From contig CP066686.1 in NCBI GenBank assembly GCA_016432365.1, forward strand, positions 793,501-857,500: a stretch of 64,000 nt of DNA, read 5' to 3'. Positions within the stretch are counted from its first letter, which is position 1. Every line of letters starts with the position of its first letter. The stretch comes from Candidatus Woesebacteria bacterium. Its GTDB lineage: Bacteria; Patescibacteriota; Microgenomatia; UBA8517. The notes below the pieces were generated by a model. The model searched no databases. It had not been told where the DNA came from and worked only from the letters and a program-made list of their open reading frames with translations. A program made the translations under genes and the position numbers. Positions 250-61,028 of the stretch are shown piece by piece.

Positions 250-1452
250 ATGTCTACTGAACGAGAACAAATTGTTGATTTAACAACAAAGTTAGTTAAA
301 ATACCATCTATTTCAATTGAACCAAAAGACGCGCCTGAAGATCGTGTCAGGAAAAGAGATGCAGCAGTCCAGGTATTAAACCTTGTATCTGAATATCTGG
401 CAAGAACCGATGGGATTACCAGCGAAACATTTGAAAACAACGGCGTTGTATCAAGACTGTGGGGAAGTAGAGAAACTTTTTTGAAACCCAAACTACTTCT
501 TTCGGGACACATCGACGTAGTCAATGCTCCCACAAATTTTTTTACTCCAAAATTAGATAAAGAAAAATTAATTGGTCGCGGTACCGGAGATATGAAGGGG
601 CATGTCGCCGCCTTAGTGATGGCATATAAAAAGTGGATTTTAGAGAATAAATCATCGAAAGGTGTTGGTTTACTTCTAACCTCGGATGAAGAGGTCGGCG
701 GATTTAATGGCGCCAGGTATGTTATAGAAAAGGGTTTACTTAGACCTGGTGTAGTTTTCATTCCAGATGGAGAATTCTCTTTTAATATCGTGGATTCTCA
801 AAAAGCACCTCATCACTTTCATGTTAAAGCAATGAGCAAAGATGGTGGTGGCCATGTTTCCAGAGCTTTCAAAATTGATAATCCTGTTAACCATATCGTA
901 AGTCTTTATCAAGAAATGAGGAAAAAATACGCACTTGCGACACCAGATAACGATTGGCAATCGACTTTTGAAATGACAGCTTTTTCAACTGGGAACGGAC
1001 AAGGTGAAAACAAATCTTCGAATTCAGCAAATCAAATAGCAGAATGGGCTGAAGCCTGGTTTGGGTGGCGTTGGCCGCTAGAAGTAAAGATTGATGGAAA
1101 ACCAGCAACATACCAAACAGGTATGGCGGACCTCAAAGATCTAGCAGAAAAATACGGCGTCGAAATATTAAAAGACGAACATGGATTTGGCGAAGGATGT
1201 TATACAGACCCAAATCTTGATTCAGTCAAACGGTGGATAAGAGTTATTGAACCAATTGTTAAACAGCCAGTAAATTTCCAACATATGCACGGAGCTACCG
1301 ATGGCAGACATTTTTACAAGTATGGGTCCGATGTTATTGTGACTTCTGGTATAACTGGAGGTGCACATTCAGATCACGAGTGGGTAGACATTGACAGCCT
1401 TGTTAAGTTATCTGAAGCAATCTATAGATATCAAAAAGAAATGACAAAGTAA
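250..1452 (+). CDS. M20-family metallopeptidase (ArgE/DapE/CPG2-like)
   Basis: Metal-binding motifs typical of M20 enzymes: LLSGHIDVV, GRGTGDMKG and SDEEVGG. Length 400 aa fits the family. Confidence 0.75.
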   Translation: MSTEREQIVDLTTKLVKIPSISIEPKDAPEDRVRKRDAAVQVLNLVSEYLARTDGITSETFENNGVVSRLWGSRETFLKPKLLLSGHIDVVNAPTNFFTPKLDKEKLIGRGTGDMKGHVAALVMAYKKWILENKSSKGVGLLLTSDEEVGGFNGARYVIEKGLLRPGVVFIPDGEFSFNIVDSQKAPHHFHVKAMSKDGGGHVSRAFKIDNPVNHIVSLYQEMRKKYALATPDNDWQSTFEMTAFSTGNGQGENKSSNSANQIAEWAEAWFGWRWPLEVKIDGKPATYQTGMADLKDLAEKYGVEILKDEHGFGEGCYTDPNLDSVKRWIRVIEPIVKQPVNFQHMHGATDGRHFYKYGSDVIVTSGITGGAHSDHEWVDIDSLVKLSEAIYRYQKEMTK

Positions 1453-1459
1453 GGTTTTC

Positions 1460-1487
1460 TTGAAAACTTGCCCCAAAGGTGTACAAT
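1460..1487 (+). promoter_or_regulatory. sigma70-like promoter (TTGAAA-16nt-TACAAT)
   Basis: TTGAAA at 1460-1465 and TACAAT at 1482-1487, about 30 nt upstream of the tyrS-like start at 1516. Confidence 0.35.
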
Positions 1488-1515
1488 GCCCATGAGTTAA
1501 AAATAATATATAGAT

Positions 1516-2781
1516 ATGAGTGAAAGATTATTAAACGAAATAAAAGAATCAGAAAAAGAAGCAGTCTCGGTAAGAGAAACTTTAACGAGATCGATTGCCG
1601 TTGATGACGAAGGGAAAAGGATGGTCATGCCAGACTCCCGTGGTTTAGAAGAGTTGATGGGCAAAAAAAGAGTTAGGCTTTATCTTGGGATTGACCCAAC
1701 AAGTCCTGAGCTTCATATAGGTCATACGGTGCCTCTAAGAAAATTAAGGCAGTTCCAGGAATTGGGTCATGAAGTAAATTTGCTTTTCGGTGGGTTTACC
1801 GCAACCATCGGAGACCCCAGCGACAGAACCGCAACCAGAATCAAGCTCACACGAGCACAAGTAGAAAGCAATATGTCCGATTATGTTGAGCAGGCCGGAA
1901 AAATACTTGATTTATCACCAACTGCAAAAAACAAAATAACATTGAGGAATAATGCCGACTGGCTATCTAAACTCACATTTGAAGACGTAACGGAGTTGGC
2001 CGCAAACTTTTCCGTACAACAAATGATGAACCGATCCACATATAAAAATAGGTACGCCACCGGAACAACAATCGGACTTCATGAATTTTTATATCCGCTC
2101 ATGCAGGGATGGGACTCGGTAGCAATGGATGTTGACTTGGAAGTAGGCGGAAAAGACCAAGTTCCAAACATGCTGGATGGAAGAACTTTGGTTAAAAATT
2201 ATAAAAATCACGAGAAGTGGGTGCTTGGAACAAGACTCATTGAGGATCCAAATGGAAAAAAGATGGGCAAAACTGAAGGGAATATTGTTAACATCCGCGA
2301 TCTCCCCGAGGTTAAATATGAAGGAATTATGACCTGGCCCGACAGCGCAATCGCAATGGGATTTGAACTCATAACATCGATCCCAATGGAACAAGTTGAA
2401 ATTGTTAAAGAGTTACTTGCCAAAGGTGAACTTGATCCAATGAAAACTAAGGAGGCGCTTGCTTTTAGGGTTGTCCAAGAACTCGATGGCATAGAAGCTG
2501 CAAAATATGCACAAGAAGAATTTAATAGAGTTAAAAGGCAGGGCCTTCTACCAAGAAGAATGCGAGAGGTTAGTGTCGCCAAAGGAACCAACCTATCGTC
2601 CATCTTGCTATCGTCCGGCCTAGTAAAAAACAAAGAAGAGGCTTTATTTAAAATTGCTCAAAAGTCTGTATTTATTGACAACATACAATTTGGAAAAGAC
2701 GTTGTTTGGCCAGCAAACGCCGAAACAATCGCAACCGGAAAGAAAACAATTAGAAATATCAGAAGAGTTGTAATTGGATGA
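1516..2781 (+). CDS. tyrS: tyrosyl-tRNA synthetase, copy 1 (canonical HIGH motif)
   Basis: Class I aaRS: DPTSPELHIGH, GGFTATIGDPSDR (TyrRS-type), KMGKT (KMSKS) and a C-terminal S4-like domain. Confidence 0.8.
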   Translation: MSERLLNEIKESEKEAVSVRETLTRSIAVDDEGKRMVMPDSRGLEELMGKKRVRLYLGIDPTSPELHIGHTVPLRKLRQFQELGHEVNLLFGGFTATIGDPSDRTATRIKLTRAQVESNMSDYVEQAGKILDLSPTAKNKITLRNNADWLSKLTFEDVTELAANFSVQQMMNRSTYKNRYATGTTIGLHEFLYPLMQGWDSVAMDVDLEVGGKDQVPNMLDGRTLVKNYKNHEKWVLGTRLIEDPNGKKMGKTEGNIVNIRDLPEVKYEGIMTWPDSAIAMGFELITSIPMEQVEIVKELLAKGELDPMKTKEALAFRVVQELDGIEAAKYAQEEFNRVKRQGLLPRRMREVSVAKGTNLSSILLSSGLVKNKEEALFKIAQKSVFIDNIQFGKDVVWPANAETIATGKKTIRNIRRVVIG

Positions 2782-3644
2782 ACTATTTGTCTCCCGAAGC
2801 AAAGTTTTCTTATACAGACTTATTCCCGCAATACATTTCATTGGAAAAGGCTCTAGGGCCTCACAACTTAAAAGCTTTTTCTTTCACTAGTGGCGAACAG
2901 TTACTGCCATTTAAAGAAATGCTAAATCCTAAGTTCCAAAAACTTTGGGCGAGCGCATTGAGTCGTTCTTCAACCGACAATCTCGTTATCGAAGATTCTT
3001 CAGAATATCCATATTTGCCTACCGATAAAGTAATAATTATTAAAAACAGTCAGGGTGAAATTCCCGTCTTTTTTTCTTACAGAGATGTCGCGACAACCGA
3101 TAGCAGGGGACTATACCTTCACATTTGCCTTGTAGACAAGAAATACCAGGGAATGGGGCTGATGAGAGCCTTAACAAAATACGTTATAGATGAAGCTCCC
3201 TCGACCTTACGGTCGGGGTATCTTCTCCCAAGCTTCGTCGGGAGCGGAATCCCTCCGAAGCGAAACTCTTCGCTTCCATCCGAGAGCTCGCGCTCGGGGT
3301 ATTTCGCGAAGGGGGATAAAACAAAACCGGGATTTATCTCTCTCATGACACAAAATGAACACATGGTCCAAACTCTAAGGCCTTTTTGTCCGCCAGGATC
3401 TCTTTACCCAATTGATGGCAAACCACCGGAGGAAATATTGGCAATTGCCAATAACTTAATACCACACGAATCCAACTTTGATAAAAACACATTTGTCTGG
3501 AAACGAGTTTATTCAAACGGGTCACCGCTTTATGGAGATCGAATGGAAAGACATTCAAATCATCCTGAAATTAGAAATTATTTTGAAAAGAATATTAATT
3601 TTCAAGATGGTGACGCAGTACTTATTGTTGGAAAGTTGAAGTAA
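2778..3644 (+). CDS. hypothetical protein, possibly GNAT-like, with a GC-rich internal segment
   Basis: YQGMGLMRAL resembles the GNAT acetyl-CoA motif Q/RxxGxG/A. A ~120-nt GC-rich stretch encodes the low-complexity peptide LRSGYLLPSFVGSGIPPKRNSSLPSESSRSGYF. Confidence 0.35.
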   Translation: MNYLSPEAKFSYTDLFPQYISLEKALGPHNLKAFSFTSGEQLLPFKEMLNPKFQKLWASALSRSSTDNLVIEDSSEYPYLPTDKVIIIKNSQGEIPVFFSYRDVATTDSRGLYLHICLVDKKYQGMGLMRALTKYVIDEAPSTLRSGYLLPSFVGSGIPPKRNSSLPSESSRSGYFAKGDKTKPGFISLMTQNEHMVQTLRPFCPPGSLYPIDGKPPEEILAIANNLIPHESNFDKNTFVWKRVYSNGSPLYGDRMERHSNHPEIRNYFEKNINFQDGDAVLIVGKLK

Positions 3645-3701
3645 AGTTTATCGCTCATTCAAATACAAAATTTAGGTCAAATATCCACTTGGAGGTGGAA
3701 C

Positions 3702-4610
3702 ATGATTATTACAAATCTATACAAAAAGTATGAGTACATCTGGCTGTCGTTGATCGTTGTACTTACCTGGGGTTTCGTCCCGCTTTTTGCCAAAGTAGGA
3801 GATCTCGCTGGAGGTCAAACCACCATGTGGGTAAATTGGTTTGGAGTTGTGGGAGTAATCGCCATAATGGCAGTAATTGGAGAACTTGGTAACATTAAAA
3901 AAGGGTTACCATATTTTACCTTTGTAAAAATAGGGTTGGTTTGGCCATTGGCCTACTCACTGGCCTACTTCAACGCAATAAAATTTGGCGGACCTTCCCT
4001 GGCAACGATCGCCAATTACACCTGGCCTGCATTTGCAATGCTTTTCTCATACTCAATGTTGAAAAGCAAAAAAACCGGTAGGGATTGGGCCGTTGTTTTA
4101 CTTGCAATTCTGGGAGTATCTATTCCAGTCTTACTTGAAGGCAACTTGAAAATATTGCTTTTACCACTGACCCTTGGGATCTTCGCGGCCATTGCCCAAG
4201 CATATTTCAACGTTCGCACAAGCTCATTCCCAAATAATTGGGCCTGGGTTCTCACGTTCGTCGTTCAACTTGTCACTGCTATCGGCGCAACAATTTATGC
4301 GATGCTTTTCGAAAGTATCACAATTCCATCCCTCACCACATTAGGGTATCTTGCATTCCTGGGGGTGGTTTCCGGCTCTGTCGGGTTCTGGGCATTTATT
4401 AAAGCCGGACAAGTCGCCCACAATCTTGGTGACAAAGAGGAAATTACATTCTACATCTTGATGTGCCTTACACCTCTTGCCCAGGTATTCGCCTTATTGA
4501 TACCCTTCTGGCATGTAGAATCTGTAAGCCCGCTGCGCTGGATTGGCGTCATGCTTGTTAGCTCGTGTTTTTTGATTTATAAAATCTTAACACGAGAAAA
4601 AAATAAATAG
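3702..4610 (+). CDS. EamA/DMT-family membrane transporter
   Basis: About 10 predicted TM helices in a two-repeat arrangement typical of drug/metabolite transporters. Confidence 0.5.
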   Translation: MIITNLYKKYEYIWLSLIVVLTWGFVPLFAKVGDLAGGQTTMWVNWFGVVGVIAIMAVIGELGNIKKGLPYFTFVKIGLVWPLAYSLAYFNAIKFGGPSLATIANYTWPAFAMLFSYSMLKSKKTGRDWAVVLLAILGVSIPVLLEGNLKILLLPLTLGIFAAIAQAYFNVRTSSFPNNWAWVLTFVVQLVTAIGATIYAMLFESITIPSLTTLGYLAFLGVVSGSVGFWAFIKAGQVAHNLGDKEEITFYILMCLTPLAQVFALLIPFWHVESVSPLRWIGVMLVSSCFLIYKILTREKNK

Positions 4611-4611
4611 G

Positions 4612-4655
4612 TCTAAGACCTCTTCTTTATCAAAAAAGGAGAGGTCTTTTTTTAT
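4612..4655 (+). terminator. rho-independent terminator
   Basis: AAGACCTCTTC...GGAGAGGTCTT stem followed by a T7 run, directly after the transporter stop. Confidence 0.6.
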
Positions 4656-4685
4656 TACGCAAATTATAGTAATATCAGCTTAGAT

Positions 4686-5840
4686 ATGAAGTTCTCAATC
4701 GATGACGTTTTAACCCGTGGAGTACAACAAGTTTTACCTGATAAAAAAGCGTTAGCGGAGCTCATGGCAAAAAGAAAAATCAAACTCTACCAAGGGTTTG
4801 ACCCGTCGGCCCCGTCACTCCATCTTGGTAATTTTGTAGGCCTGATGAAACTTAGGCAGTTCCAGAAATTGGGACATGAAGTAATTTTCTTGGTAGGGGA
4901 CTTTACCGGAATGATAGGGGACCCAACCGATAAACTTGCTACCAGAAAAAAGTTGACTCGTGAACAAGTTTTGGAAAACGCAAAAGCCTGGTATAAACAG
5001 GCGGGAAAAGTTTTAGATTTTGAAGGCAAAAATCCCGCCAAGATTCTATTTAATTCCGAATGGAGTGACAAGATTACTTTCAAAGATTTAATTGAAATTA
5101 CTTCAAATGTAACCGTTCAGCAAATGATTGAACGCGATATGTTCCAGGAAAGATTAAAAACTAACACCCCTATATATCTCCATGAATTTTTATACCCAAT
5201 AGCTCAAGGATACGATTGTGTGATGATGGACGTAGATCTGGAAATTGGCGGCAACGATCAACTTTTCAACATGATGATGGGAAGAACTCTAATGAAAGCA
5301 ATTAAAAATAAAGAAAAATATGTGCTTACGACAAAACTTTTAGTGGATAAAGAAGGTAAAAAAGTTGGCAAGACCACAGGAAATGCATTGTTTTTGGATG
5401 GCCAGCCCGAGGATTTCTATGCCGGCATTATGTCCTTTCCGGACGAGGTAATTTATTTAAGCTTTGAACTCCTTACAGAAATAGATCTTAACGGTTTGGA
5501 AGAAAAAATTAAAAAATCCCCAATGGAAGAAAAGAAGCATTTGGCCTTTGAGATCGTTAAGTTTCTTTGGGGAACAAGCGCCGCCACTTTAGCCGAGCAA
5601 AAATTTGCAAAAACTTTTCAACAAAAAGCACCTGAATTCGACAAAAGTGTTAAGGCAGGTGAAAGTCTGGCTGTTACGATAACACCCTTTACGTCACTTG
5701 CCAGCGTAAGTGATGCAAAAAGGCTTCTTAAACAAAACGCGGTAGAAGTTAACGGTCAAAAAGTAACCGTTACTTCTTACACCGTAAAGCCTGGCGATGA
5801 AATAAAAGTTGGTGCAAGAACATTTTTGAAAGCAAAATGA
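4686..5840 (+). CDS. tyrosyl-tRNA synthetase paralog, copy 2 (HLGN variant of HIGH)
   Basis: YQGFDPSAPSLHLGNFVGL, GDFTGMIGDPTDK, KVGKT and a C-terminal S4-like domain. The second His of HIGH is replaced by Asn. Confidence 0.75.
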   Translation: MKFSIDDVLTRGVQQVLPDKKALAELMAKRKIKLYQGFDPSAPSLHLGNFVGLMKLRQFQKLGHEVIFLVGDFTGMIGDPTDKLATRKKLTREQVLENAKAWYKQAGKVLDFEGKNPAKILFNSEWSDKITFKDLIEITSNVTVQQMIERDMFQERLKTNTPIYLHEFLYPIAQGYDCVMMDVDLEIGGNDQLFNMMMGRTLMKAIKNKEKYVLTTKLLVDKEGKKVGKTTGNALFLDGQPEDFYAGIMSFPDEVIYLSFELLTEIDLNGLEEKIKKSPMEEKKHLAFEIVKFLWGTSAATLAEQKFAKTFQQKAPEFDKSVKAGESLAVTITPFTSLASVSDAKRLLKQNAVEVNGQKVTVTSYTVKPGDEIKVGARTFLKAK

Positions 5841-5941
5841 TATCCAAAAAAGGTAAAAAAATATTTGTAGTTATAACAATAATCTCCTCTTTGGCCCTTC
5901 TGGCCGGAGCGATATTGCCTTATATTCTATACACAAGGTAG
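5837..5941 (+). CDS. small hydrophobic membrane peptide (34 aa)
   Basis: MISKKGKKIFVVITIISSLALLAGAILPYILYTR. Its ATG overlaps the tyrS-2 TGA stop (ATGA), consistent with translational coupling. Confidence 0.3.
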   Translation: MISKKGKKIFVVITIISSLALLAGAILPYILYTR

Positions 5942-5957
5942 TTATATAATTGGCAGT

Positions 5958-7958
5958 ATGGACTTAAATTCTCCCATTTCCGATCTCCCCAAAGTTGGGC
6001 CAATATTTGAAAAGAAATTTGAACGATTAGGGATTAATACCATCGAGAACCTCTTTTACCATGTTCCTTCGCGCTATCTGGACTATTCATTAATAACAAC
6101 TATTAACAAACTTCGAGCGGATGAAACAGTTACCATTCACGTCAAAATTGTCTCCATCACAAATATTTTTTCCAAAAGGGGAGTGCGAATGCAAATCGGG
6201 TCCGTGGAGGATGAAACGGGCAAACTAATGGTTGTTTGGTTTAACCAGCCGTTTCTTTTAAAAATGTTATACCCGGGAAGGCTTGTTTCGTTGTCCGGAA
6301 AAGTCGGATTTTTTAATAGAAAATTATGTTTGAGTTCACCCGATTACGAAATACTGGACGAGGAAGGAGACCAAACTTTCCACACAGGCCGTTTTGTACC
6401 CGTTTATCCCGAAACTTCGGGTCTTTCTTCCAAATGGCTTAGAACCAAAATCCGCGACGCATTTGCTGTAAGTGAAATCAAAGAATATTTACCAAAAGAT
6501 GTATTGACAAGGTCGGACCTTGTCAGTCTGAAGGAGGCGATACGGGAAGTTCATTTCCCTGAAAATCTGGAGGAAGCGGAGGAGGGGAGAAAAAGATTGG
6601 CTTTTAATGAAGTCTTAAATCTTCAATTAAAAAGTTTAATCAGAAAATCAAACTGGAAAGAAAATCGCGTCACCAACAAATTAAAAATTGACAGCTCGGC
6701 TATCTACAAGTTTATTGAATCCCTGCCTTTCAAATTAACCGATTCGCAATCAAAAACGATCAATGAAATCTTAAAAGATTTGGGGGGTGAAATCCCGATG
6801 AACAGACTCTTGGAAGGGGACGTGGGCAGTGGAAAAACAGTTGTAGCGGCAGTTGGCGCGTTTGCGGCTTTCCTCAACGGTTATCAAACTTTGATAATGG
6901 CACCCACTCAAATTTTGGCAACTCAGCATTACGAAACTCTCAATCGTCTTTTTTCCAAATTCAAACTTCGTCTCTCGCTTCTAACATCCAGCGTCAAACT
7001 TCACGATCTTGGACGAACAGATATCTTTGTTGGCACTCATTCATTAATTCACAGTAAAGTTGACTTTAGTAAAGTAGCCTTTGTAGTTATCGACGAACAA
7101 CATAGATTTGGCGTTGAGCAAAGAAGACACTTGGTTAAAAGAACAGGGACCCCACATGTATTAACAATGACCGCTACCCCAATTCCAAGAACTGTTGCCT
7201 TAACCACATACGGAGATCTGGATTTGTCGGTCTTGACCGAAATGCCGAAAGGCAGACAAAAAGTCACAACTTGGGTCGTGCCGGAGGAAAAAAGAGAAGG
7301 AGCATACGAGTGGATGAAGAAACAAATAGTGACCGAGAAATCGCAAATATTTATCGTTTGTCCATTAATAGAGGACTCAGAGACTGAAACAATGAAAGAT
7401 ATAAAGTCAGTCACTTCCGAATTCTTAAATCTTAAATCTGTATTCATAAATCAAAAACTCGGGCTGCTCCACGGAAGATTAAAATCAATAGAAAAAGAGA
7501 AAGTATTAAATGAATTTCGTGAGGGTAAAACAGATATTCTAGTGGCAACACCCGTGGTTGAAGTTGGGATAGATATTCCCAATGCCACCATTATGATGAT
7601 TGAAGGTGCAGAACGTTTTGGCCTTGCAGGACTTCACCAACTCAGGGGCAGGGTGGGTAGGGGCAGTAAACAGTCATATTGTCTACTATTCTCCAACTTT
7701 CACTCAGGTATGGCCTACACGCGCCTAAAAGCGATGGAAAAGAGTCATTCCGGCTTTGAGTTGGCAGAACTGGACCTTAAGCTCAGAGGCCCGGGCGAGA
7801 TCTTCGGAACAGCCCAATCAGGCTTCCCCGAGCTCAAAATTGCCTCTTGGAACAACTTTGAACTGATCAAAGCGACTAAAGAAGTTGCGGAGGATATAAT
7901 TAAAAACCCCAAAAAATACCCCTTGGTAAAAACCAAATTCGAAGCCTCAACTGTATAA
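5958..7958 (+). CDS. recG: ATP-dependent DNA helicase RecG
   Basis: N-terminal wedge/OB region, Walker A GDVGSGKT, DEQHRFGV (DExH) and helicase C motifs. Length 666 aa. Confidence 0.85.
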   Translation: MDLNSPISDLPKVGPIFEKKFERLGINTIENLFYHVPSRYLDYSLITTINKLRADETVTIHVKIVSITNIFSKRGVRMQIGSVEDETGKLMVVWFNQPFLLKMLYPGRLVSLSGKVGFFNRKLCLSSPDYEILDEEGDQTFHTGRFVPVYPETSGLSSKWLRTKIRDAFAVSEIKEYLPKDVLTRSDLVSLKEAIREVHFPENLEEAEEGRKRLAFNEVLNLQLKSLIRKSNWKENRVTNKLKIDSSAIYKFIESLPFKLTDSQSKTINEILKDLGGEIPMNRLLEGDVGSGKTVVAAVGAFAAFLNGYQTLIMAPTQILATQHYETLNRLFSKFKLRLSLLTSSVKLHDLGRTDIFVGTHSLIHSKVDFSKVAFVVIDEQHRFGVEQRRHLVKRTGTPHVLTMTATPIPRTVALTTYGDLDLSVLTEMPKGRQKVTTWVVPEEKREGAYEWMKKQIVTEKSQIFIVCPLIEDSETETMKDIKSVTSEFLNLKSVFINQKLGLLHGRLKSIEKEKVLNEFREGKTDILVATPVVEVGIDIPNATIMMIEGAERFGLAGLHQLRGRVGRGSKQSYCLLFSNFHSGMAYTRLKAMEKSHSGFELAELDLKLRGPGEIFGTAQSGFPELKIASWNNFELIKATKEVAEDIIKNPKKYPLVKTKFEASTV

Positions 7959-51742: not shown

Positions 51743-51905
51743 ACGATCATCTTAATACGCTATCAAAATATGTCAATTCACTATTGACTGCAAATAAAAC
51801 TTGTGTAGAATAAATAATATATCAAGAGGCGGCCAGGGACTAGCCCGATGACCCGCCAACAACCTCCTGAATTTAGTTCGGGAAAGGTGCTAAAACTAGA
51901 ACGAT

Positions 51906-52964
51906 ATGAAAAACATATTTTTAGATACTTTCAAAAACTACACTGTTGAATCCGTAACAAGCGGACACCCCGATAAAATTTGTGATCAAGTTTCCGATGC
52001 CATACTCGATGAATGCCTCCGCCAGGATCCCAAAAGTAGAGTAGCTATAGAAAGTTTTGGCGCGCACGGACTTTTTGTGATCGGTGGAGAAGTTACAACC
52101 AATGCTAAGTTTGACGCAAAAAAAATTGCGGCACGAGTTTACAAAGAAATTGGGCATTTGGATAAACTCAAATTTGTAACAAACATAATTAAGCAATCAC
52201 CCGACATTGCCATGGGGGTAGATACCGGCGGGGCAGGGGATCAGGGCATCATGTACGGCTTTGCTACCGACGAAACTCCGGAATACCTCCCCAGAGCAGT
52301 TGCTCTTGTACACAAGCTTACAAAAGGATTGGAAGAGCTTAGACGTTCCAAAAAAATCAAATGGCTTCTTCCCGACGGCAAGGCCCAAGTAACAATAGAA
52401 AACGGAAAAATCAAAACAGTTTTGGTTTCGGCCCAGCATAAGAAAGGTGTAAAACTTGAACAAGTGCGCAAGGAAATTTCCGAAAAATTAATTAAAAAAC
52501 TTGTGCCCGGTATTAAAGATGAAAATATCCTAGTTAATCCTACAGGTAAATTTGAGGTAGGAGGATTTATCGCTGACACAGGACTAACCGGCAGAAAAAT
52601 CATGGTTGACTCTTACGGAGGACTTATTCCACACGGCGGTGGAGCGTTTTCCGGAAAAGATCCTACAAAAGTAGATAGGAGCGGCGCCTACATGTGCCGA
52701 TTTGTCGCTAAAAACCTGGTTGCAAAAGGAAAGGGTAAAAGTGTTCTCGTTTCTGTTGCTTACGCTATCGGAAAGGCAGAGCCACTAATGATCGATGCTA
52801 AAAACGAAAAAGGTAAAGATCTTTCAGATTATGTTAGGAAACATTTCGACTTTAGGCCATTGGCTATCATCGAAAAACTAAAACTCAGAAACCCCATTTA
52901 TTCCCAAACCGCCGCCTATGGCCACTTCGGCAAAAAAGGTCTTCCCTGGGAAGAGATTGAATGA
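51906..52964 (+). CDS. metK: S-adenosylmethionine synthetase
   Basis: ESVTSGHPDKICDQVSDAILD and GGGAFSGKDPTKVDRSGAY. Confidence 0.85.
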   Translation: MKNIFLDTFKNYTVESVTSGHPDKICDQVSDAILDECLRQDPKSRVAIESFGAHGLFVIGGEVTTNAKFDAKKIAARVYKEIGHLDKLKFVTNIIKQSPDIAMGVDTGGAGDQGIMYGFATDETPEYLPRAVALVHKLTKGLEELRRSKKIKWLLPDGKAQVTIENGKIKTVLVSAQHKKGVKLEQVRKEISEKLIKKLVPGIKDENILVNPTGKFEVGGFIADTGLTGRKIMVDSYGGLIPHGGGAFSGKDPTKVDRSGAYMCRFVAKNLVAKGKGKSVLVSVAYAIGKAEPLMIDAKNEKGKDLSDYVRKHFDFRPLAIIEKLKLRNPIYSQTAAYGHFGKKGLPWEEIE

Positions 52965-53015: not shown

Positions 53016-54015
53016 ATGTCAGATTTTGGTAAAGATTCTCCGCATTCACAAGAAGGGTCAGAACCATCAATAAGGTTTTTGCAAATAACACATTCGGCTG
53101 AAAATGCGGTCAGGGTTTGGGAGGAAGCCAAAAAACATGATGTTGTATTACTAGAAGTTTATGACCTGTCTGATGCTCAACGTGAAGATTTGGAAAATAC
53201 CATTAATGGTATGTCCTCAATCGAAGACCCAGAGAGTAGAATGAAGACTCTTGGAAACCTCTACTCAGATTCGGGATTCGCGCAACAAATTATAAGGCAA
53301 GCGATCCTTGAAGGAAAAGAGTTTCATTTTATTGACATTTCCAGCAATCACGATGCTCATGTGTTTTATGAAAGAGCCGAAGCATATAGTAATGAAGTTT
53401 TCAAATATTTTTATGAGGGTGTATTCGATAAGTCTTTGTCAAGTCTCCGTGCGTATGTTGCCGCAAATTCCCAAGCAAACACCTCAAGAGAAAACCTGGT
53501 GTCAAGACAAGTTAAAAATTTGGTTAGTGAAAACCAAAAAAAAATGGAGGGGTAAGTCTGTATGTGTCGTCCAAGGGGAGGAACATACAAGAAGCTATCA
53601 TATTTTCAAAAAAGATAACCCCACAATACAATCGTCGCGTACATTTTTAAACGAAGGGCGATTTTCCTTCGATTTAGAATTTGAAGTTGAGAAAAGGCTA
53701 TCTGTTGGAAGTCATGAAGATCGCGAGCTGGCCCTCAAAAGGTTATTTATTACCCGTCTAGTTCTAGGCACCGTTATCAGGGGAGTCACGACAGAAACGA
53801 TAGAAAAAAAAGACAAACTCGCAAGGTCGTTGGAAAGCGATGAAGTCGATAAAATTTTTGAAAGACTTGCAGAAATACAAAAGTACGTTCACGAGGAAGA
53901 GCATGACACACCAAACCTGGTCAAAGTCTATGTATTTAAACAAGTACAAATTCTAGGTCAACAAATTATAGAAAAACATCCCCTTTTTGCCGAAAGTTCG
54001 ACACAAGTAGTATAA
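53016..54015 (+). pseudogene. hypothetical gene split by a +1 frame change at an A9 homopolymer (53536-53544)
   Basis: ORF 53016..53555 ends 8 nt after the A9 tract. The downstream frame (to 54015) has no start codon after that point, yet removing one A gives a single ~333-aa reading frame. Confidence 0.4.
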
Positions 54016-54022
54016 TATATTT

Positions 54023-55759
54023 ATGTCTGAAGAACTAGAAACTTTAGAGTCACAAGTCGAACTTGACCGCTTTGAAAAAGAATGGGGAGAGTACGGTGAT
54101 CTTCCTGAGCGTGGCGGGGGAGGAGGCAAACGCCCCAAAAACGGCCCCACCAAAAGCCAGGAGGCTTCAAATGCCGAAGAAAACGCAAGACTTGCGCGAG
54201 AAAGACAGGTATTTGCCGAAAACCAGATTTTAGAATACATCGACGAAACTTGGGATCATTTTAAAAAAGAGGATTTGCCGAATAAAGTAGCTGAATATGC
54301 TACCTGGATGGAAAAGGCCTCAAAGCAAAAAGATTTTAAAGTTGACCCAGACGACATTAGGATTAAATCAAAATTATCCGGGGGAAGCGGAGGCCAAAAT
54401 GTACAAAAAAATCAAACGGCTGTAGATATAACACATAAGCCAACCGGCCTTCGTGTGGGTTCACAAAGCGAACGTAGTCAACTTACCAACAAACAAGTTG
54501 CTCTCCAAATACTAACATTAAACATAAAATCCCAGCTAAAACTTTGGAAAGAAACATCAAAAGAATTTAGACAAAAACTAATGCACCCCAAAGAGTCTGA
54601 GAAATTTGAAACCGGTTTTGTACCACTCCCCGAAGGAGTAACAATTGATCGTCTAAGAGGGCAGGTGCCGCCCTCAGAAGAACTAACCGTTATGTTTAAT
54701 TGGGAAGGTGATTCCGATCATAAACCAAAAAGCGTCACAGTTAACGGAGAAAATTTTTATTTGTATCCCTCAGTAGAATACCGGGTAAATTTTAATTCGT
54801 CCCAAAATGGCGATGTCTATATGAATCCGGTTGACCCCAAAAGTGGCGCCCCGGAAGTTTCCGATATTCCGGCCGCTCTTGATAGGCATTTGGCATCAGT
54901 AAAGGGCAGGCAGGTATCAGGCATTAATATTTCTGCTAAAAGTTCGGATGGGGAAATATCAAAAGCCATCGACAAAGTTCAAATGGGAATTGAAAGATCG
55001 CTGGATACCGACAGACTCAGAGCTTTTGCTCAAGAATACTTCGAATCCGATCTCACCAACGATCTTAAAACCATAAAAGAGGCTTTAGACCTGGCCCCGT
55101 TCCAAGAAGGGTCTCGAGCTGATCAAATAATATACCGCCAAGCCTGGCTAATATTCGAAAGTGAGTTTTACAAAAGATTAGATGAAAATGGAAATATAGA
55201 TAACCTAAAAGAATTAATGCAGGATTCTCTCATTCAATATATGGAGCAAGTTAAAGATATTTTAGAAAACAGACCGACAGAATTAATTAACATAACCGAT
55301 GATCCAAATAGCATAGTTATACATTTTGACACTATCCCAACCGACCCGAGATACCCCAATCACGGTCTTATCATCCTAACAACATATATTCCCAACCGAG
55401 GTTGGACGATAATGGCCCCAATTGGTGATTGCCCAAATTTTGCAGCCTACATGCTCAAGGACTTTGCCACCGGCACGAACAAAGAAAACCAAGCATCAAT
55501 ATTTGCGGATTCATTTCAGACTGCGAAAGAGAGCGGAGTATTGAATATTTTAAACGACGGTAAAACATTGTTGTTTAAAAACTTATCGGACCTAAATCCC
55601 TACATGGCCGTTTTTCATAGCGACGACCACACTCTAAAAATGGCGTTAGAAACTCTAAGAGTTGCAGGGGATCCGCACATGGGCGAAAATAATTTTAAAT
55701 TTATTATTTACAAAAAGGACGAAGTCGTGCCGGAGATGACGACAATCGATTTGACATAA
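54023..55759 (+). CDS. release-factor GGQ (peptidyl-tRNA hydrolase) domain fused to a ~400-aa C-terminal domain of unknown function
   Basis: Residues ~105-165 (DPDDIRIKSKLSGGSGGQNVQKNQTAVDITHKPTGLRVGSQSERSQLTNKQVALQIL) align with the class I RF / ArfB catalytic domain. No codon-recognition domains are present. Confidence 0.6.
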   Translation: MSEELETLESQVELDRFEKEWGEYGDLPERGGGGGKRPKNGPTKSQEASNAEENARLARERQVFAENQILEYIDETWDHFKKEDLPNKVAEYATWMEKASKQKDFKVDPDDIRIKSKLSGGSGGQNVQKNQTAVDITHKPTGLRVGSQSERSQLTNKQVALQILTLNIKSQLKLWKETSKEFRQKLMHPKESEKFETGFVPLPEGVTIDRLRGQVPPSEELTVMFNWEGDSDHKPKSVTVNGENFYLYPSVEYRVNFNSSQNGDVYMNPVDPKSGAPEVSDIPAALDRHLASVKGRQVSGINISAKSSDGEISKAIDKVQMGIERSLDTDRLRAFAQEYFESDLTNDLKTIKEALDLAPFQEGSRADQIIYRQAWLIFESEFYKRLDENGNIDNLKELMQDSLIQYMEQVKDILENRPTELINITDDPNSIVIHFDTIPTDPRYPNHGLIILTTYIPNRGWTIMAPIGDCPNFAAYMLKDFATGTNKENQASIFADSFQTAKESGVLNILNDGKTLLFKNLSDLNPYMAVFHSDDHTLKMALETLRVAGDPHMGENNFKFIIYKKDEVVPEMTTIDLT

Positions 55760-55786: not shown

Positions 55787-56188
55787 ATGGCCAAGGGATT
55801 TGTGCGAAATTTAGAAGAGTTAACGGCGCAAAATTCCAACTTCAGAAAAGTAATATATACCGCAAAACATTCCCAACTGGTATTGATGTGTCTTAAACCT
55901 TCCGAGGAAATCGGAATGGAAACTCACCCGGATAACGACCAATTTTTAAGAATCGAAAGTGGCGAAGGGAAGGCTATAATTGACGGAAATGAACAAGTTT
56001 TTTCCAGCGGATTTTGCGTAGTTGTTCCTGCCGGTTCCCGGCACAACATAATTAATACTTCAGCCAACGTCGAACTAAAACTTTACACCGTTTATTCTCC
56101 GCCTCATCACAAAGACGCTACCATCCACGAAACAAAGGAAATAGCCATGTCTTCAGAGGAGGATTTTGACGGAGTTACTTCAGAGTAG
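55787..56188 (+). CDS. cupin-domain protein
   Basis: GMETHPDNDQFLRIESGEG...VVPAGSRHNIIN two-motif cupin pattern. Confidence 0.55.
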   Translation: MAKGFVRNLEELTAQNSNFRKVIYTAKHSQLVLMCLKPSEEIGMETHPDNDQFLRIESGEGKAIIDGNEQVFSSGFCVVVPAGSRHNIINTSANVELKLYTVYSPPHHKDATIHETKEIAMSSEEDFDGVTSE

Positions 56189-56780
56189 AAGGTAAAAGTT
56201 GCCACCAATTTCGTTTAAGCTCAGCCACGCTGGAACACATATCTGTCACAATAAGTAAACGATGTTCGGGAGATTTTAGGTTTACCGATTCCAAATTAAT
56301 TCCCCTTACTTCAAATCTGTCTTCCAACTCATGACTTAAATTTTTCAAAACCACACGCAATTCCCGCTGATCAAACCGGCCGGAAATGACACTCAAGTTA
56401 TGTCCCGGAATATAAGGGCTATCTGCCTCGATATAACCACAATCAAGACACCTGTACATCCTTATAAACGGATTAAATTTTAAATCATATTGCTCGTTTG
56501 AAAATGGAAAGTTGACAACAAGAGGTTTGTCTTTAAACATTTCGTGAGCTTTGTTTGTGATTTCCCAATAAAGACTTAGGGTGCGGGCGCCAGGCGGACT
56601 AAACTCCTTTGGCCCACTGCCAACATATACCCTTTTGACCATGTCGCCATTTTTATAGACCCGAGAGTCATAACCGTCGCCTACGAAATGGTCCAAAAGA
56701 GCTCTATGGCATTCTCCGCCAACAAATTCAAATTCCTTCGACATAACCAGCAATTTTACCTCGTTTTCAATTTGTTGCAA
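56175..56780 (-). CDS. CxxCG-motif hypothetical protein, paralog A of a three-member family
   Basis: Shares VKRVYVG, NPFI..C.DCGY.EA and TDMCSSVAELK blocks with the ORFs at 57324 and 57927. Confidence 0.45.
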   Translation of the reverse strand: MQQIENEVKLLVMSKEFEFVGGECHRALLDHFVGDGYDSRVYKNGDMVKRVYVGSGPKEFSPPGARTLSLYWEITNKAHEMFKDKPLVVNFPFSNEQYDLKFNPFIRMYRCLDCGYIEADSPYIPGHNLSVISGRFDQRELRVVLKNLSHELEDRFEVRGINLESVNLKSPEHRLLIVTDMCSSVAELKRNWWQLLPSTLK

Positions 56781-56802
56781 CTTGAGTTAGAATAATCTAA
56801 TT

Positions 56803-57321
56803 ATGGAAGGGGGGATTGATCCGGAAGTTTTAGGCGAGATGATAGAAAAGTTCTACGAACCGCGCCACCACAATAAACGTCGCCCCAACGTTATCCTACC
56901 CAAAGGTAAAGGTGCAGAAATCCTCAGGCAAAACGAGACAGATAAAGCCGAACAGGCAATTCAAAAACATATATCTAAAAATTTTGATTCGATTCAGGAC
57001 CCCCAGGAAAGAAAAGAAAAAATGGGGGAATACTTGGGGTGGGTTAGGGAATCATTGGTTACAATGAGCCGACGCCCTCCTTACATTACCAAGTTCGAAG
57101 AGGAAAATCTTGAAAAAACCGAAACGGAGAACACCGTTTCCGTACTTCATATACCTTCAAAACTTTCAGTTACACACACAGGCGAAGCAGACCAGCATCA
57201 CAACGATATCGAAGCCCAGGAAGATCTCTATACTCGCTTAGAAAATCATATAAATGACTGGGGAAACAAAGTCTCCAAAAGGTTCAGGGAAAAATACGGA
57301 ATTATCGCCGATTTAAAATAA
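56803..57321 (+). CDS. hypothetical hydrophilic protein
   Basis: 172-aa charged ORF lying between paralogs A and B on the opposite strand. Confidence 0.35.
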   Translation: MEGGIDPEVLGEMIEKFYEPRHHNKRRPNVILPKGKGAEILRQNETDKAEQAIQKHISKNFDSIQDPQERKEKMGEYLGWVRESLVTMSRRPPYITKFEEENLEKTETENTVSVLHIPSKLSVTHTGEADQHHNDIEAQEDLYTRLENHINDWGNKVSKRFREKYGIIADLK

Positions 57322-57323
57322 CT

Positions 57324-57863
57324 TCAATTTTTTTTAGCCAAATCGGCAATATCAAAACACAGGTCCGTTACAGTAAAGGCCGATAAACCACTGCTTCTGA
57401 CATTTACAGGAGCTATGAAAATACCGTCAACGCCAAGCTCTTTTTCTATTTTATAATTTAAGCCGCTCAACTTATCAACTAATATATCGTGGACAGGAGT
57501 AAAAAAAACGGAATCGAGTCTTGCTCCGGTTATAAAAGGAGCCCATGCCTCAAGGTAGCCACACTTGTCACATTTACCAACCTGAAGAAAGGGGTTAATC
57601 AAAATCCTTTTATTTCCATATGGCAAGGGAAGTTTTATGGACCATTTTTCAGCCTTGGCCAAATCTGAAGCCCTGGAAGTTATGTCGTTATAAAAACGAA
57701 GTTTTTCAATATTTAAAAAGTCTATTGGGCTATTGTCTCTGTAAATTTTCAATGCATATTCGTTAACCCTAAAAACAACCGAATTAATTCCTTGGGCAAT
57801 CAATTTTTTGTTAACATCCAGACGGCAGGGCCAAACTCCCTCCGCTCCAAATTCTTTTGACAT
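57324..57863 (-). CDS. CxxCG-motif hypothetical protein, paralog B
   Basis: NPFLQVGKCDKCGYLEA, ..VTDLCFDIADLAKKN. Confidence 0.45.
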   Translation of the reverse strand: MSKEFGAEGVWPCRLDVNKKLIAQGINSVVFRVNEYALKIYRDNSPIDFLNIEKLRFYNDITSRASDLAKAEKWSIKLPLPYGNKRILINPFLQVGKCDKCGYLEAWAPFITGARLDSVFFTPVHDILVDKLSGLNYKIEKELGVDGIFIAPVNVRSSGLSAFTVTDLCFDIADLAKKN

Positions 57864-57926
57864 GCAGGCATTCTACTACAAAGGCCATCTAAACTGAAAT
57901 TAAACACCACTTTGCGCCCACCGTCT

Positions 57927-58466
57927 TCAATGAAACCTCTTTAGTCTGCCAATATCGGAGCAAATATCTGTGGCAATTAGGATGTCATGACCCCCATCTT
58001 TTACATTAATTGGATCTAACTTAACACCCTCAACATTAAGTCTTTTTTCAAGATCACGACTAAGTTGACTAAGTCCAGCCTCCATATCTGCCAAGTCGTA
58101 TTTGTAACGAAGACTTTCAAGATCGTCACCGCCTACAAACTTAGAAACAGCTTCCATAGATCCACAATCACACATGCGCGCAGTTATTATTGGATTTACT
58201 TTAAAAATAAATGATTTTTTAGAGTTTGGCAGTCTAACAAAAAGATCTTCTGTTTCAGAAACAGAATAAGCTAAATTGGTTATTTGCCAATAAAAATTAA
58301 ACTGTCTTTCCGATAATGGCGGAGGGTCTCCTCCCACACCACCCACATACACCTTTCTCACGTTTTCCCCGTCCCTAAAGACTAAAGAATCGTACCCTGT
58401 GGTTACAAGTTCCAAACCCAGCTTTTTGTGACAGATCTGTAAATTTGGTTCTGTATCTCTAAACAT
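57927..58466 (-). CDS. CxxCG-motif hypothetical protein, paralog C
   Basis: VRKVYVGGVGG, NPIITARMCDCGSMEA, ATDICSDIGRLKRFH. Confidence 0.45.
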   Translation of the reverse strand: MFRDTEPNLQICHKKLGLELVTTGYDSLVFRDGENVRKVYVGGVGGDPPPLSERQFNFYWQITNLAYSVSETEDLFVRLPNSKKSFIFKVNPIITARMCDCGSMEAVSKFVGGDDLESLRYKYDLADMEAGLSQLSRDLEKRLNVEGVKLDPINVKDGGHDILIATDICSDIGRLKRFH

Positions 58467-58486: not shown

Positions 58487-59443
58487 TTATTTACCACCTT
58501 GTCCGTGATATTGTTCATGTATTTCTTTTAACTGGCGGTTTGTTACATGAGTGTAGATCTGAGTTGTAGAAATGTTCTTATGCCCTAGCATCTCTTGCAC
58601 CGAACGGATATCAGCCCCGGCGTTTAGTAAATCGGTGGCGAAGGAATGGCGCATCACATGAGGTGTAACTTCCATCGGCATTTTCATTTTGTGAGAATAC
58701 TTTTTTATCATTCTCTGGACCGAGCGGGGAGTGAGTCTCATTTTTTCATCCGGCGTGGCCGGATCAGACTTCCCTTTGTGATGAATGAAAAGGGGTTTGT
58801 AGTGATCGCGCCTTTCATTTAAATATTTAATTAACCAATCAGTTGCACGACTGGAAAGAAACACTACCCTGGCCTTTCCACCTTTTCCCACAATCCCGAA
58901 TTCTTTTGTTTCGAGATTCACCTTATCACGATCAAGTTTGGTAAGTTCCGAAACACGAAGGCCTGTAGAAAACAAAACTTCCAAAATCGCTTTGTCCCGC
59001 TTGCCTTGAATCGAATCCTGAGAGGGGGCGTTTAGCATTCTGTCGACTTGCTCACCGCTTAAAAATTTTACCTGCCGTTCTTCCACTTTAGGCAAGTCAA
59101 TTTTATCGGGTGCCATAGCCTGAAAGTCATTTCTAATAAGCCATTTAAGAAAACTTCTAAGAGCTATAACATGATAACTCTGAGTGCGGCGTCCCATTAG
59201 GTGACCATTTTCTCCGGGCAGGGTTGTTAAAAAAACTCTAAAACTCCTTACAATATCCTGATTGATATCAATTATATTTTCCCGGATTCCTTGAGACTCC
59301 ATCCACAAAATAAGTCTCGATAAATAGTGTCTGTAATTCCGAAGGGTTAGGGGAGAGGCGCCACGTTCTACCTGAAGATACTCCAAAAAGTCTTCAACCT
59401 TTTTGGCTATCTCACTTTGATTGATCGGGCCAGGATCGGGCAT
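58487..59443 (-). mobile_element. tyrosine site-specific recombinase (XerC/XerD / phage integrase family)
   Basis: C-terminal catalytic region: HVMRHSFATDLLNAGADIRSVQEMLGHKNISTTQIYTHV (R..H..R..Y). N-terminal SAM-like core-binding domain. Confidence 0.75.
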
Positions 59444-59504: not shown

Positions 59505-60260
59505 TTAGGGAGAATAATAAAGTAAGTCTTCAAATACCGAGATGTTCGGAAAAAAGATGCGTCTTTCTCCCAATAATCCCTCAAAACTTTCACCTTCCGC
59601 AGGAAATCCCAAAAAACCAATATCCGGTGCTTTTTGAAGAAGAGTACGAGCAAGCCTCATTGAATCGTCCAGGTGAACCATGCCCGGGTTAAACTTAAAT
59701 AGCTCGGCGACTCTTCGGGCTTTGAATTCGTTTCCGTCCAAATTTGAATTAGGATTGATACCAATATGATCAGTAGGAATCCAGGGAAAATTATGATTTA
59801 GCCACATAAAAGTTGAGTCTGCCAAAGACGGAATCCTCGAAGTCGTAACATATTGTTTTACACCTCTTACGTTTGCCACAATTGATAAATTCCTCAATTT
59901 TTGATTTGCCTCACCTGCTAATAAAATTTTTGGGTCTGACCATACACGCCATTCATATTCCAAAGCATCCTTCTTATTCATCAGGTCATCTTCAACAAGC
60001 CAATTGGCAATGCTATTCCAACCGATGATTTTTCGGCTCGAATAATTTGTTCCAAGATCTTTGTCACAATAATCCAAAACCGGAATTTCGGTCCGCGATA
60101 AAACCTGATCAATATCCCAACTAATTACCAAATCCCGTTGATTTAAATTTACTATACCGAATAAATAAATCCGTTGTGAATAACTTAACGTGTCTAGGTA
60201 ATTCTGAACCGTCTCTTTTTGCATTTCGGTAAATATACAGCCTATTGTTATCAATATCAA
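59505..60260 (-). CDS. HAD-superfamily hydrolase-like protein (5'(3')-deoxyribonucleotidase-like)
   Basis: Motif I-like VISWDIDQVL (DxD) and a C-terminal HLDDS. Confidence 0.35.
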   Translation of the reverse strand: MILITIGCIFTEMQKETVQNYLDTLSYSQRIYLFGIVNLNQRDLVISWDIDQVLSRTEIPVLDYCDKDLGTNYSSRKIIGWNSIANWLVEDDLMNKKDALEYEWRVWSDPKILLAGEANQKLRNLSIVANVRGVKQYVTTSRIPSLADSTFMWLNHNFPWIPTDHIGINPNSNLDGNEFKARRVAELFKFNPGMVHLDDSMRLARTLLQKAPDIGFLGFPAEGESFEGLLGERRIFFPNISVFEDLLYYSP

Positions 60261-61028
60261 ATCGAGGCTAAATGTGACCTCACTAAATCGATTTTAAAGG
60301 CCCTCTAGGTCAAAAGACGACTATATGGTCGTCTTGTTAAGGTCGTATTTACGGTAAAAACAGTCAGTTAAATTATTTGAAAAACTTTTAAAAGAAAGAT
60401 AGGGAGGTGCAGTGGTAGGAGGAGTCAAACCATTCGGTCTTTATTCGGAAGAAGTATTTTAAGGAAAAATCTAAAAATAGAGTATTTATACAATATCAAA
60501 ACATAAAAGATGAAAATTAAAAGCTAAAAGTTTTTTAAAATAACGTAAGAAGTACTACACTACGTCATCAAAATTATTCTGCGTCGCAAAAGTATTATTG
60601 TGCGACCTTATATAATTTACTTCCTTCTGGAAGTTCGTCACAAATACGCCTCAGGTTCGCGGGATAGGGTTAAACACGCTTAAAATACCCAAACGTAATA
60701 GACATCTATTCCCTCATAAAGAAGTAGTCGATTTTACGTTTAACCATTTAGTTATCCACACTACGAGAGATGATGGTCAGTTAGTATAATCTCGAGCGTG
60801 ACAAGTATATCAATCTATATCACCCATTGCTGAAGACCTATTGTGTTTTCTTCGGGTTGACAAATACGTCGCATTTCGTGAAAAGATCCTATAATTTTCG
60901 TGAAAACAACCTCTGTCTGAAGTGATAATACCCTATAATTATAGGATACTTTATTCCCCTCCTCCCCTCTCTCGTTCTCTGTTCTGCCTAAAATTTTAAT
61001 TCTAATTTCTTAATTATTAATTAATTTG

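Follow-up and report, generated by a model that had tools for sequence, protein, structure and literature searches.

What are three short and mutually divergent genes doing side by side next to a tyrosine recombinase in a member of the Candidatus Woesebacteria? The genes, which we call par1, par2 and par3, lie on the minus strand of a 64-kb stretch of DNA (64,000 nucleotides, below referred to as the window) from a 1.08-Mb contig of a Candidatus Woesebacteria metagenome-assembled genome, where NCBI lists them as HYV90_04710/20/25. A first-pass annotation, made from the letters of the window, had taken them for rapidly diverging paralogs of an unrecognisable family, situated in an integrase-linked island. 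We find that the three open reading frames (ORFs) are functional genes encoding old paralogs of a family that, according to structure prediction, very probably has a protein-kinase-like (PKL) fold in the form of a single minimal domain of about 175–195 aa, and that the family gene occupies a constant place in its chromosomal neighbourhood.

Three paralogs and their family

The three ORFs are located on the minus strand as first described (Table 1), except that the start of par1 has been moved. The mechanical ORF of par1 spans 56175–56780 and gives 201 aa counted from a TTG codon. Comparison with related sequences suggests that translation most likely begins not there but at the ATG at 56744, because MSKEF is the N-terminus of most relatives, and the resulting 189 aa is also the NCBI annotation. 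In pairwise BLASTP comparisons, par1 and par3 are 37% identical (E 2e-39), par2 and par3 30% (E 4e-21), and par1 and par2 27% (E 4e-21), which places the paralogy far above chance. A three-way, full-length alignment contains 30 invariant columns, and each of the ordered motif blocks that had been noticed despite the low identity is represented among them: G-x-D/N-S-x-V-F/Y followed by K/R-V/I-Y, N-P-F/I, C-x(1,2)-C-G-x-x-E-A, and T-D-[MIL]-C with a Leu further downstream.

A word-indexed search of 5.8 billion proteins returned only four outside relatives, and 4–7 proteins even with a 131-sequence profile; the family became apparent only in an exhaustive HMMER search. With a 7-sequence profile and 1.84 billion cluster representatives as target, this search matched 223 representatives at E<=1e-3, of which 108 reached E<=1e-10 and 25 reached E<=1e-30. 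The 150 matches listed are, with few exceptions, 145–230 aa long and covered end to end. Conservation was counted in an alignment of 156 representatives, with residues numbered as in par2 throughout. The signature reads G25-x-D27-S28-x-V30-[YF], K39-x-Y41, Y58-x3-T62-N63-x-A65 and N90-P91 in the first part, and [FY]-[IV]-x-G113, G147-I148, N154-x-K156, T166-D167-L168-C169 and L175 in the second, each residue being present in about 80–99% of the aligned sequences.

The impression that the family cannot be recognised from sequence was borne out. No model in Pfam, NCBIfam, PADLOC or PHROGs matched par1, par2 or par3 (PADLOC and PHROGs at E<=0.1), and a profile of 131 members gave nothing significant against Pfam and the PDB sequences. 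Hints below threshold were obtained for the APH N-lobe in PDB entry 3uzr (E 0.068, aligned over SGDDSDTF...VVKV), and in Pfam for APH (E about 0.09) and Kinase-PolyVal (E 0.1). Among the 131 members scanned, APH (PF01636) appeared for 2, with a best E of 0.092, and the Pkinase profile for 0; the members scanned did not match RIO1 or Kdo in Pfam either. No description of the family was found in curated libraries or in the literature searched, and a recent preprint that presents new PKL families from the oral microbiome mentions neither Patescibacteria nor Saccharibacteria in its main text.

Source names attached to family members are Woesebacteria, Microgenomates and a 'PAT1' bin, and wherever the source names an organism, a small number of proteins, the family appears so far to be confined to Patescibacteria, i.e., the Candidate Phyla Radiation (CPR). 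One contig, CAZOUV010000014.1 (L001 / L005; loci outside the window are given as L numbers), is labelled 'uncultured Gammaproteobacteria'. It displays a Woesebacteria-type HAD-Xer-family-MetK synteny with an Xer protein 72% identical to that of the window, and the bin label is therefore probably wrong. A search of GTDB genomes for further loci returned only the locus already known, and no related loci were found in JGI metagenomes, where the short peptide patterns limited the search.

The number of family genes per locus is one in L001, L011 and L014, two in L002, and three in the window, and tandem pairs occur in L002 and L006. In a neighbour-joining tree without bootstrap, read together with the identities, par3 groups with L010 (59% identity) and par2 with L004, L003 and L001 (61–49%); in the same tree, par1 groups with P0013, P0016 and P0022. 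Because each paralog of the window groups with different relatives from other genomes, the duplications are old, and the notion of rapidly diverging paralogs is not supported, since each has its own closer relatives elsewhere. The family as such diverges at an intermediate rate, slower than its HAD-like neighbour (24–37% identity) and faster than Xer or cupin (72–87%).

A further property of the three genes is a cysteine triad formed by C13, C98 and C101. Its members co-occur strictly: of 156 sequences, 41 have the complete triad and 92 have none of the three cysteines. They are confined to the clade with an MSKEF...C N-terminus, which includes the genes of the window. This strict co-occurrence within one clade marks the triad as a clade-specific, probably structural feature. 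The CxxCG motif, earlier described as conserved, is found in par1 and par2, whereas par3 carries C-D-C-G with CxC spacing, and with 41 of 156 sequences it is no hallmark of the family. C169 in the T-D-L-C motif is conserved throughout the family irrespective of the triad, and proteins that carry the triad may have Ala or Ser in its place. A His follows the first Cys in some sequences and C169 is dispensable, thus leaving no evident fourth ligand. Judging from this pattern, the triad would most plausibly be a staple, either a structural Zn site or a disulfide, that connects the N-terminal segment to the turn of a β-hairpin.

Predicted fold and active site

AlphaFold2 models were obtained for par1 with 7 sequences (pLDDT, the predicted local distance difference test, 81.7; pTM, the predicted template-modelling score, 0.77) and for par3 with 131 sequences (pLDDT 94.0, pTM 0.88). 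In a structural comparison that covered the PDB, the best Foldseek match had an E-value of 5e-6 and a probability of 1.00, and the top 50 matches were all kinases. The structural matches include PknB, CaMKI, the UbiB-like Rv3197, RIO1/2/3 (8.6–9.0), Bud32 (7.8–8.3), the RNA kinase Ark1 (8.1) and several APH/MPH enzymes. The models display the bilobal PKL architecture, with an N-lobe composed of a β-sheet and αC, a hinge, and a shortened C-lobe. In order along the chain, the predicted elements are β1, the glycine loop (G-loop), β2, β3, αC, four further strands, the hinge and one long helix, after which follow the catalytic loop, two short strands and the DFG equivalent. The chain ends about 12 residues past the DFG-equivalent Asp and therefore has neither an activation segment nor an αF–αI core; the activation segment, APE motif and αF–αI helices of Hanks-type kinases are all missing.

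By their order and spacing, the conserved motifs can be placed on this predicted fold. G-x-D-S-x-V is located between β1 and β2, [FY]-I-x-G at the hinge, and T-D-L-C at the DFG position. The β3 Lys (V-x-K-x-Y) resides inside the predicted third strand and is a Lys in 144 of 151 aligned sequences. The segment G-I-x-[IL]-x-P-x-N-x-K has I/L at N-4 and Pro at N-2, as in HRDLKPEN, and its Asn is found in 153/156 sequences; the DFG-equivalent Asp is present in 154/155. The earlier suggestion that the N-lobe is kinase-like, with both a glycine loop and a Lys, thus gains support, because the conserved residues occupy the expected kinase positions in the models.

The catalytic-loop Asp (HRD, or H-x-D in Brenner notation) is not conserved. 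In the HRD-equivalent column, five residues before the invariant Asn, the 156 sequences have Asn (35), Ser (20), Glu (18), Asp (18), Phe (12), Lys (8) and others, i.e., Asp is absent in about 88%; the residue is Asn in par1, Phe in par2 and Lys in par3. The candidate acidic position in αC is likewise variable (Glu in 51, Asp in 27, Gln in 19, and others), and Thr62 and Asn63 are far better conserved. Among the window's three proteins, par3 has all the family-consensus residues, and par1 has an Arg at the β3 Lys position (VKRVY) with the remaining signature residues in place. The par2 protein departs from the consensus by D27N in the G-loop, which is common to its whole subfamily, by N63S in αC, and by K156R, which turns N-x-K into N-x-R.

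A conserved chromosomal neighbourhood

The flanking features of the first-pass annotation, i.e., the cupin gene, the Xer-like recombinase, the HAD-like gene and an ORF-free stretch at 60261–61028, are all present (Table 1). The recombinase matches Pfam Phage_integrase (E 2e-42) and, over its full length, the XerC/XerD models TIGR02224/TIGR02225 (E about 1e-77, 258–260 bits), scoring below the XerC/XerD equivalog cut-offs and above the XerA cut-off. A recombinase 72–82% identical is found at the same position in L001, L002 and L011–L014. The conserved order is YebC, DUF5656, about 800 bp free of ORFs, HAD/NT5C-like, Xer, family gene(s) and a convergent MetK; in some loci, Xer and the family gene(s) are separated by a 75-aa Cys-rich ORF or by a cupin. 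At least six other assemblies share this order. The full order is seen in L011–L013 and L014, and the Xer-family-MetK core in L001, L002 and L003; in L004, the family gene comes directly after Xer. MetK is a neighbour of the family gene in L001, L002, L003 and L011–L014, and the cupin adjoins it in L002 and L010 and lies nearby in L014. The window has the same gene order on the opposite strand. This conserved order, together with the 72–82% identity across genomes, identifies the 'integrase' as a chromosomal Xer and the family gene as a fixed part of the neighbourhood. In the window, only 20 bp separate the end of xer from the start of par3, which follows it in the same orientation, and the two are therefore probably co-transcribed.

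Table 1. Features of the window in and around the three family genes
Feature	Position	Strand	Description
metK	51906-52964	+	far boundary of the Xer-family-MetK interval; convergent with the family genes
Apparently frameshifted accessory gene	53016..54015	+	overlapping ORFs of 179 aa and 235 aa; no Pfam match
RF-1-domain protein, accessory	54023..55759	+	578 aa; Pfam RF-1 E 1.8e-20; partial matches to NCBIfam prfA/prfB/prfH
Cupin_2 protein	55787..56188	+	133 aa, E 2e-14; convergent with par1, 14-bp overlap
par1	56175..56744	-	predicted minimal kinase-fold protein, 189 aa; mechanical ORF extends to TTG at 56780
Degenerate RF-1-like protein	56803..57321	+	172 aa, GGQ loop deleted; divergent from par1
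par2	57324..57863	-	predicted minimal kinase-fold protein, 179 aa; its subfamily includes orthologs from L001, L003, L004
par3	57927..58466	-	predicted minimal kinase-fold protein, 179 aa; CxC in place of CxxC
XerC/XerD-type tyrosine recombinase	58487..59443	-	318 aa; conserved chromosomal neighbour
HAD/NT5C-like protein	59505..60260	-	conserved upstream neighbour of xer; L011 homolog carries PF06941 NT5C

The GC content of the region is 0.40–0.42, compared with a window average of about 0.41. No relatives of the family were found by tblastn in phage and plasmid collections, nor in IMG/VR, where the search was limited by the short peptide patterns used. More distant members reside in different surroundings. 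In three distant lineages (L006-8, L009 and L020), whose S1 proteins are only 41–47% mutually identical, the family gene is located immediately downstream of rpsA. In L006-8 the order continues with a second, tandem paralog and radA, and in L020 radA is convergent. The family gene in L017 is divergent from greA, and the neighbours of the one in L018 (304 and 336 aa) are unrelated to the accessory proteins of the window or L014.

The accessory genes between Xer and MetK include two RF-1-like proteins in the window. The 578-aa protein has an intact RF-1/GGQ domain at about residues 100–185, preceded by a Gly/charged-rich N-terminus and followed by a C-terminal region of about 390 aa, which is an unusual architecture for a release-factor-like protein. 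The 172-aa protein has matches below threshold to RF-1 in Pfam (E 0.0014) and to prfH in NCBIfam (E 0.0046). BLASTP relates it to the 578-aa GGQ protein, in the N-terminal part of the latter (E 7e-4), and to a 476-aa protein in L014 (E 2e-4). By these sequence comparisons, it is a degenerate RF-1-domain protein and a weak paralog of that N-terminal region. The acidic opposite-strand ORF that had been said to separate the paralogs and to be unrelated is thus correctly located on the plus strand, and its identity is that of a degenerate RF-1-domain protein. The L014 476-aa protein (5538–6968, minus strand) resembles both RF-1-like proteins in its N-terminal part and the frameshifted gene of the window in its C-terminal part, to which in turn a 328-aa L014 protein is paralogous. 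The two ORFs at 53016–54015 align consecutively to this single 328-aa protein and to the C-terminal part of the 476-aa protein, which indicates a frameshifted pseudogene or an assembly error. The RF-1-like gene that is divergent from a family gene encodes a degenerate, GGQ-less protein both in the window and in L014, where about 30 bp separate the two genes.

A number of further observations concern this neighbourhood. A SAM (S-adenosylmethionine) riboswitch (RF00162, 53.5 bits) at 51816–51931 on the plus strand directly precedes metK, with an overlap at the start of the metK ORF. The 75-aa Cys-rich ORF between xer and the family gene is found at 6720–6947 in L011 and at 207–434 in L004 (55% identity), and is absent from the window. 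In L014, the position between xer and the family gene is occupied by a 561-aa protein (3849–5534) with a HEIGH motif and a weak anthrax-lethal-factor-like match (PF07737, E 3e-4). The Xer ORF of L003 (1–1485), a metagenomic contig, has an insertion of about 410 aa that follows directly after the conserved HVMRH motif. The insertion starts with a Cys and has the appearance of an intein within the Xer catalytic domain. Upstream of rpsA in L020, an ORF for a LAGLIDADG homing endonuclease lies within a long stretch (1331–4892) that has no other called gene. Intron-bearing rRNA genes are common in CPR bacteria, and the L020 stretch may be one.

The ORF-free stretch at 60261–61028 (about 770 bp) is located between the DUF5656 and HAD/NT5C-like genes, and has syntenic counterparts in L011 (4143–4953) and L014 (1215–2102). 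Although most of the DNA here has diverged among Woesebacteria, some blocks are strongly conserved, namely the palindrome CCTATAATTATAGG, the twice-repeated TTTTCACGAAA, TGTGGATAA, GTCGCACAATAATACTTTTGCGACG and GGCCTTTAAAATCGATT. TGTGGATAA, at 60752–60760, is the sole perfect DnaA box of the 64-kb window. The stretch was considered as a replication origin (oriC) and rejected, since there is neither a cluster of boxes nor a switch in GC skew around the one perfect box, and it has no match at gathering score in Rfam. It could be a non-coding RNA, or a regulatory or origin-like region.

Function and relation to known kinase-like proteins

Based on the conserved residues and the gene contexts, we lean towards the view that the family members are nucleotide-dependent enzymes or switches with a housekeeping role, although with no great margin of confidence. 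The proteins would bind ATP, or another nucleoside triphosphate, together with Mg2+ through the near-invariant Lys, Asn and Asp. An atypical mode of action can be envisaged that does not need the HRD Asp: phosphotransfer that either dispenses with a base or employs the G-loop Asp, SelO-like nucleotidyl transfer, or ATP hydrolysis as a conformational switch in the manner of RIO and Bud32. The predicted cleft is surrounded by a polar shell composed of the G-loop Asp-Ser, the αC Thr-Asn, Asn-x-Lys, the Thr before the DFG-equivalent Asp and the Cys after it. We infer that the proteins are active rather than inert scaffolds, because these family-specific polar residues exceed what maintenance of the fold would need. 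The target would be a housekeeping component, and the three copies in the window may divide substrates among them or form hetero-oligomers.

Several points weigh against this view. The catalytic Asp is missing and the αC acidic residue is present in about half of the sequences, both of which are classic traits of pseudokinases, and par1 and par2 depart from the consensus active site by the Arg at the β3 Lys position and by three conservative substitutions, respectively. The assignment of motifs to kinase subdomains derives from order, spacing and predicted secondary structure. The genomic context comes from about 12 independent loci, several of which (L017 and L018) show neither Xer nor S1, the association with RF-1-like genes is seen in only two genomes, and the restriction to CPR bacteria derives from few named proteins, with one contig bearing the gammaproteobacterial label. 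The main rival is accordingly that the proteins are non-catalytic pseudokinases, in which the fold, perhaps with bound nucleotide, serves as a scaffold or allosteric switch, and homo- or hetero-oligomers regulate a partner without group transfer. Apart from the traits already mentioned, such a role would agree with the absence of an activation segment and a substrate-binding C-lobe, and with the recurring tandem paralogs, which are reminiscent of kinase/pseudokinase pairs. It is more difficult to reconcile with the near invariance of the Mg-binding Asn and Asp and of the β3 Lys, or with the extra conserved polar residues, and enzymes such as SelO are active without an HRD Asp. We therefore regard it as a serious possibility, if a minority one.

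Minimal small-molecule kinases of the APH/choline-kinase type, acting on a metabolite, nucleoside or antibiotic scavenged from a host, are improbable. The nearby HAD/NT5C nucleotidase-like, cupin and MetK genes would suit such a function, but these HAD, cupin and MetK neighbours do not accompany the distant members that follow rpsA, the Asp of the Brenner motif H-x-D-x4-N is missing, and so is the helical substrate-binding subdomain at the C-terminus. Still less credible, and largely refuted, is the initial proposal of a variable integrase-associated island in which rapidly diversifying paralogs would function in defence, toxin-immunity or host interaction. The part of this proposal that stands is the variability of the accessory content between Xer and MetK, which differs among Woesebacteria (RF-1-like proteins, the '328-aa' family, the 561-aa HExxH protein) and includes a gene that looks frameshifted; the family gene varies in copy number from 1 to 3. 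Yet it is the family gene that forms the conserved core of this interval, the XerC/D-type recombinase keeps its place in related genomes, each paralog has orthologs elsewhere, and distant members reside in rpsA–radA housekeeping operons. The mobile-island model was rejected on account of the synteny, the ordinary base composition and the lack of relatives in the phage and plasmid collections searched, and PADLOC and PHROGs gave no match that could suggest a defence or phage function.

For the housekeeping reading, the rpsA linkage and the divergent RF-1-like partners give a hint that the target belongs to the translation apparatus, to which they point weakly; a ribosome-directed function as such is unlikely. 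In its most specific form, which we offer as a long shot, the family would be a CPR-specific minimal kinase-fold enzyme aimed at the ribosome or translation factors, in which, with no HRD base, the invariant G-loop Asp-Ser and Asn-x-Lys catalyse nucleotidyl transfer or gated ATP hydrolysis, with the GGQ-bearing and GGQ-less RF-1-domain proteins as partners in some Woesebacteria. If true, organisms with reduced ribosomes would possess a bacterial counterpart of the RIO/Bud32-type ATPases, or else a new module for ribosome modification or rescue.

Among characterized proteins, the minimal bacterial effector kinases OspG and NleH (PDB codes 4q5h, 4bvu and 4lrj) are closest in size and architecture. 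OspG and NleH are secreted virulence factors of enterobacteria that keep the canonical catalytic Asp. The present family does not have this Asp, and differs further by extra N-lobe strands with an N-P turn, by the Cys triad, and by its location in CPR housekeeping loci; sequence identity is 16–17%, with no match at profile level. With respect to a possible mode of action, the RIO kinases and Bud32/PRPK are close, being small atypical kinases or ATPases associated with ribosomes and tRNA modification. These archaeal and eukaryotic, and not CPR, proteins keep the catalytic-loop Asp and have extra helices (an N-terminal flap in RIO, and in Bud32 a C-terminal tail that binds Kae1/Cgi121). The family does not match Pfam RIO1 or Kdo, and lacks the features that define membership. 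The APH family (PF01636) is closest as regards sequence hints, which are confined to the N-lobe, and all the matches are below threshold. Unlike APH enzymes, the family has neither the H-x-D-x4-N Asp nor the helical substrate-binding subdomain, and is about 180 aa long compared with about 260–330 aa. The pseudokinase AMPylases of the SelO/YdiU type have the same active-site pattern, with the Lys and the Mg-binding Asn/Asp kept and the HRD Asp lost, a resemblance that may serve as a lead. SelO is a precedent for an active nucleotidyl-transferase without HRD Asp, has about 480 aa or more, and is widespread outside CPR bacteria. It is absent from the sequence matches of the family and from the structural matches listed. 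On the features compared, namely a profile match, the catalytic Asp and the family-specific subdomains, the family thus belongs to none of OspG/NleH, RIO/Bud32, SelO and APH, and is best regarded as a new PKL-superfamily variant associated with CPR bacteria.

Neither a new defence system nor a mobile element is indicated by these results, and the fold class itself is well known; what the finding provides is a family that can be tested. The genomes of CPR bacteria, or Patescibacteria, are tiny and contain many genes without an assigned function, and a conserved, often duplicated family in housekeeping loci lends itself to study as a candidate regulatory or modification enzyme specific to this lineage. 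Its members are among the smallest PKL domains seen, comparable to OspG and NleH, and have a distinctive active site with no HRD Asp, an invariant G-loop Asp-Ser, and T-D-L-C in place of DFG. They could help to establish how little the fold requires, or bring to light other, non-phosphotransfer chemistry, as SelO and SidJ did.

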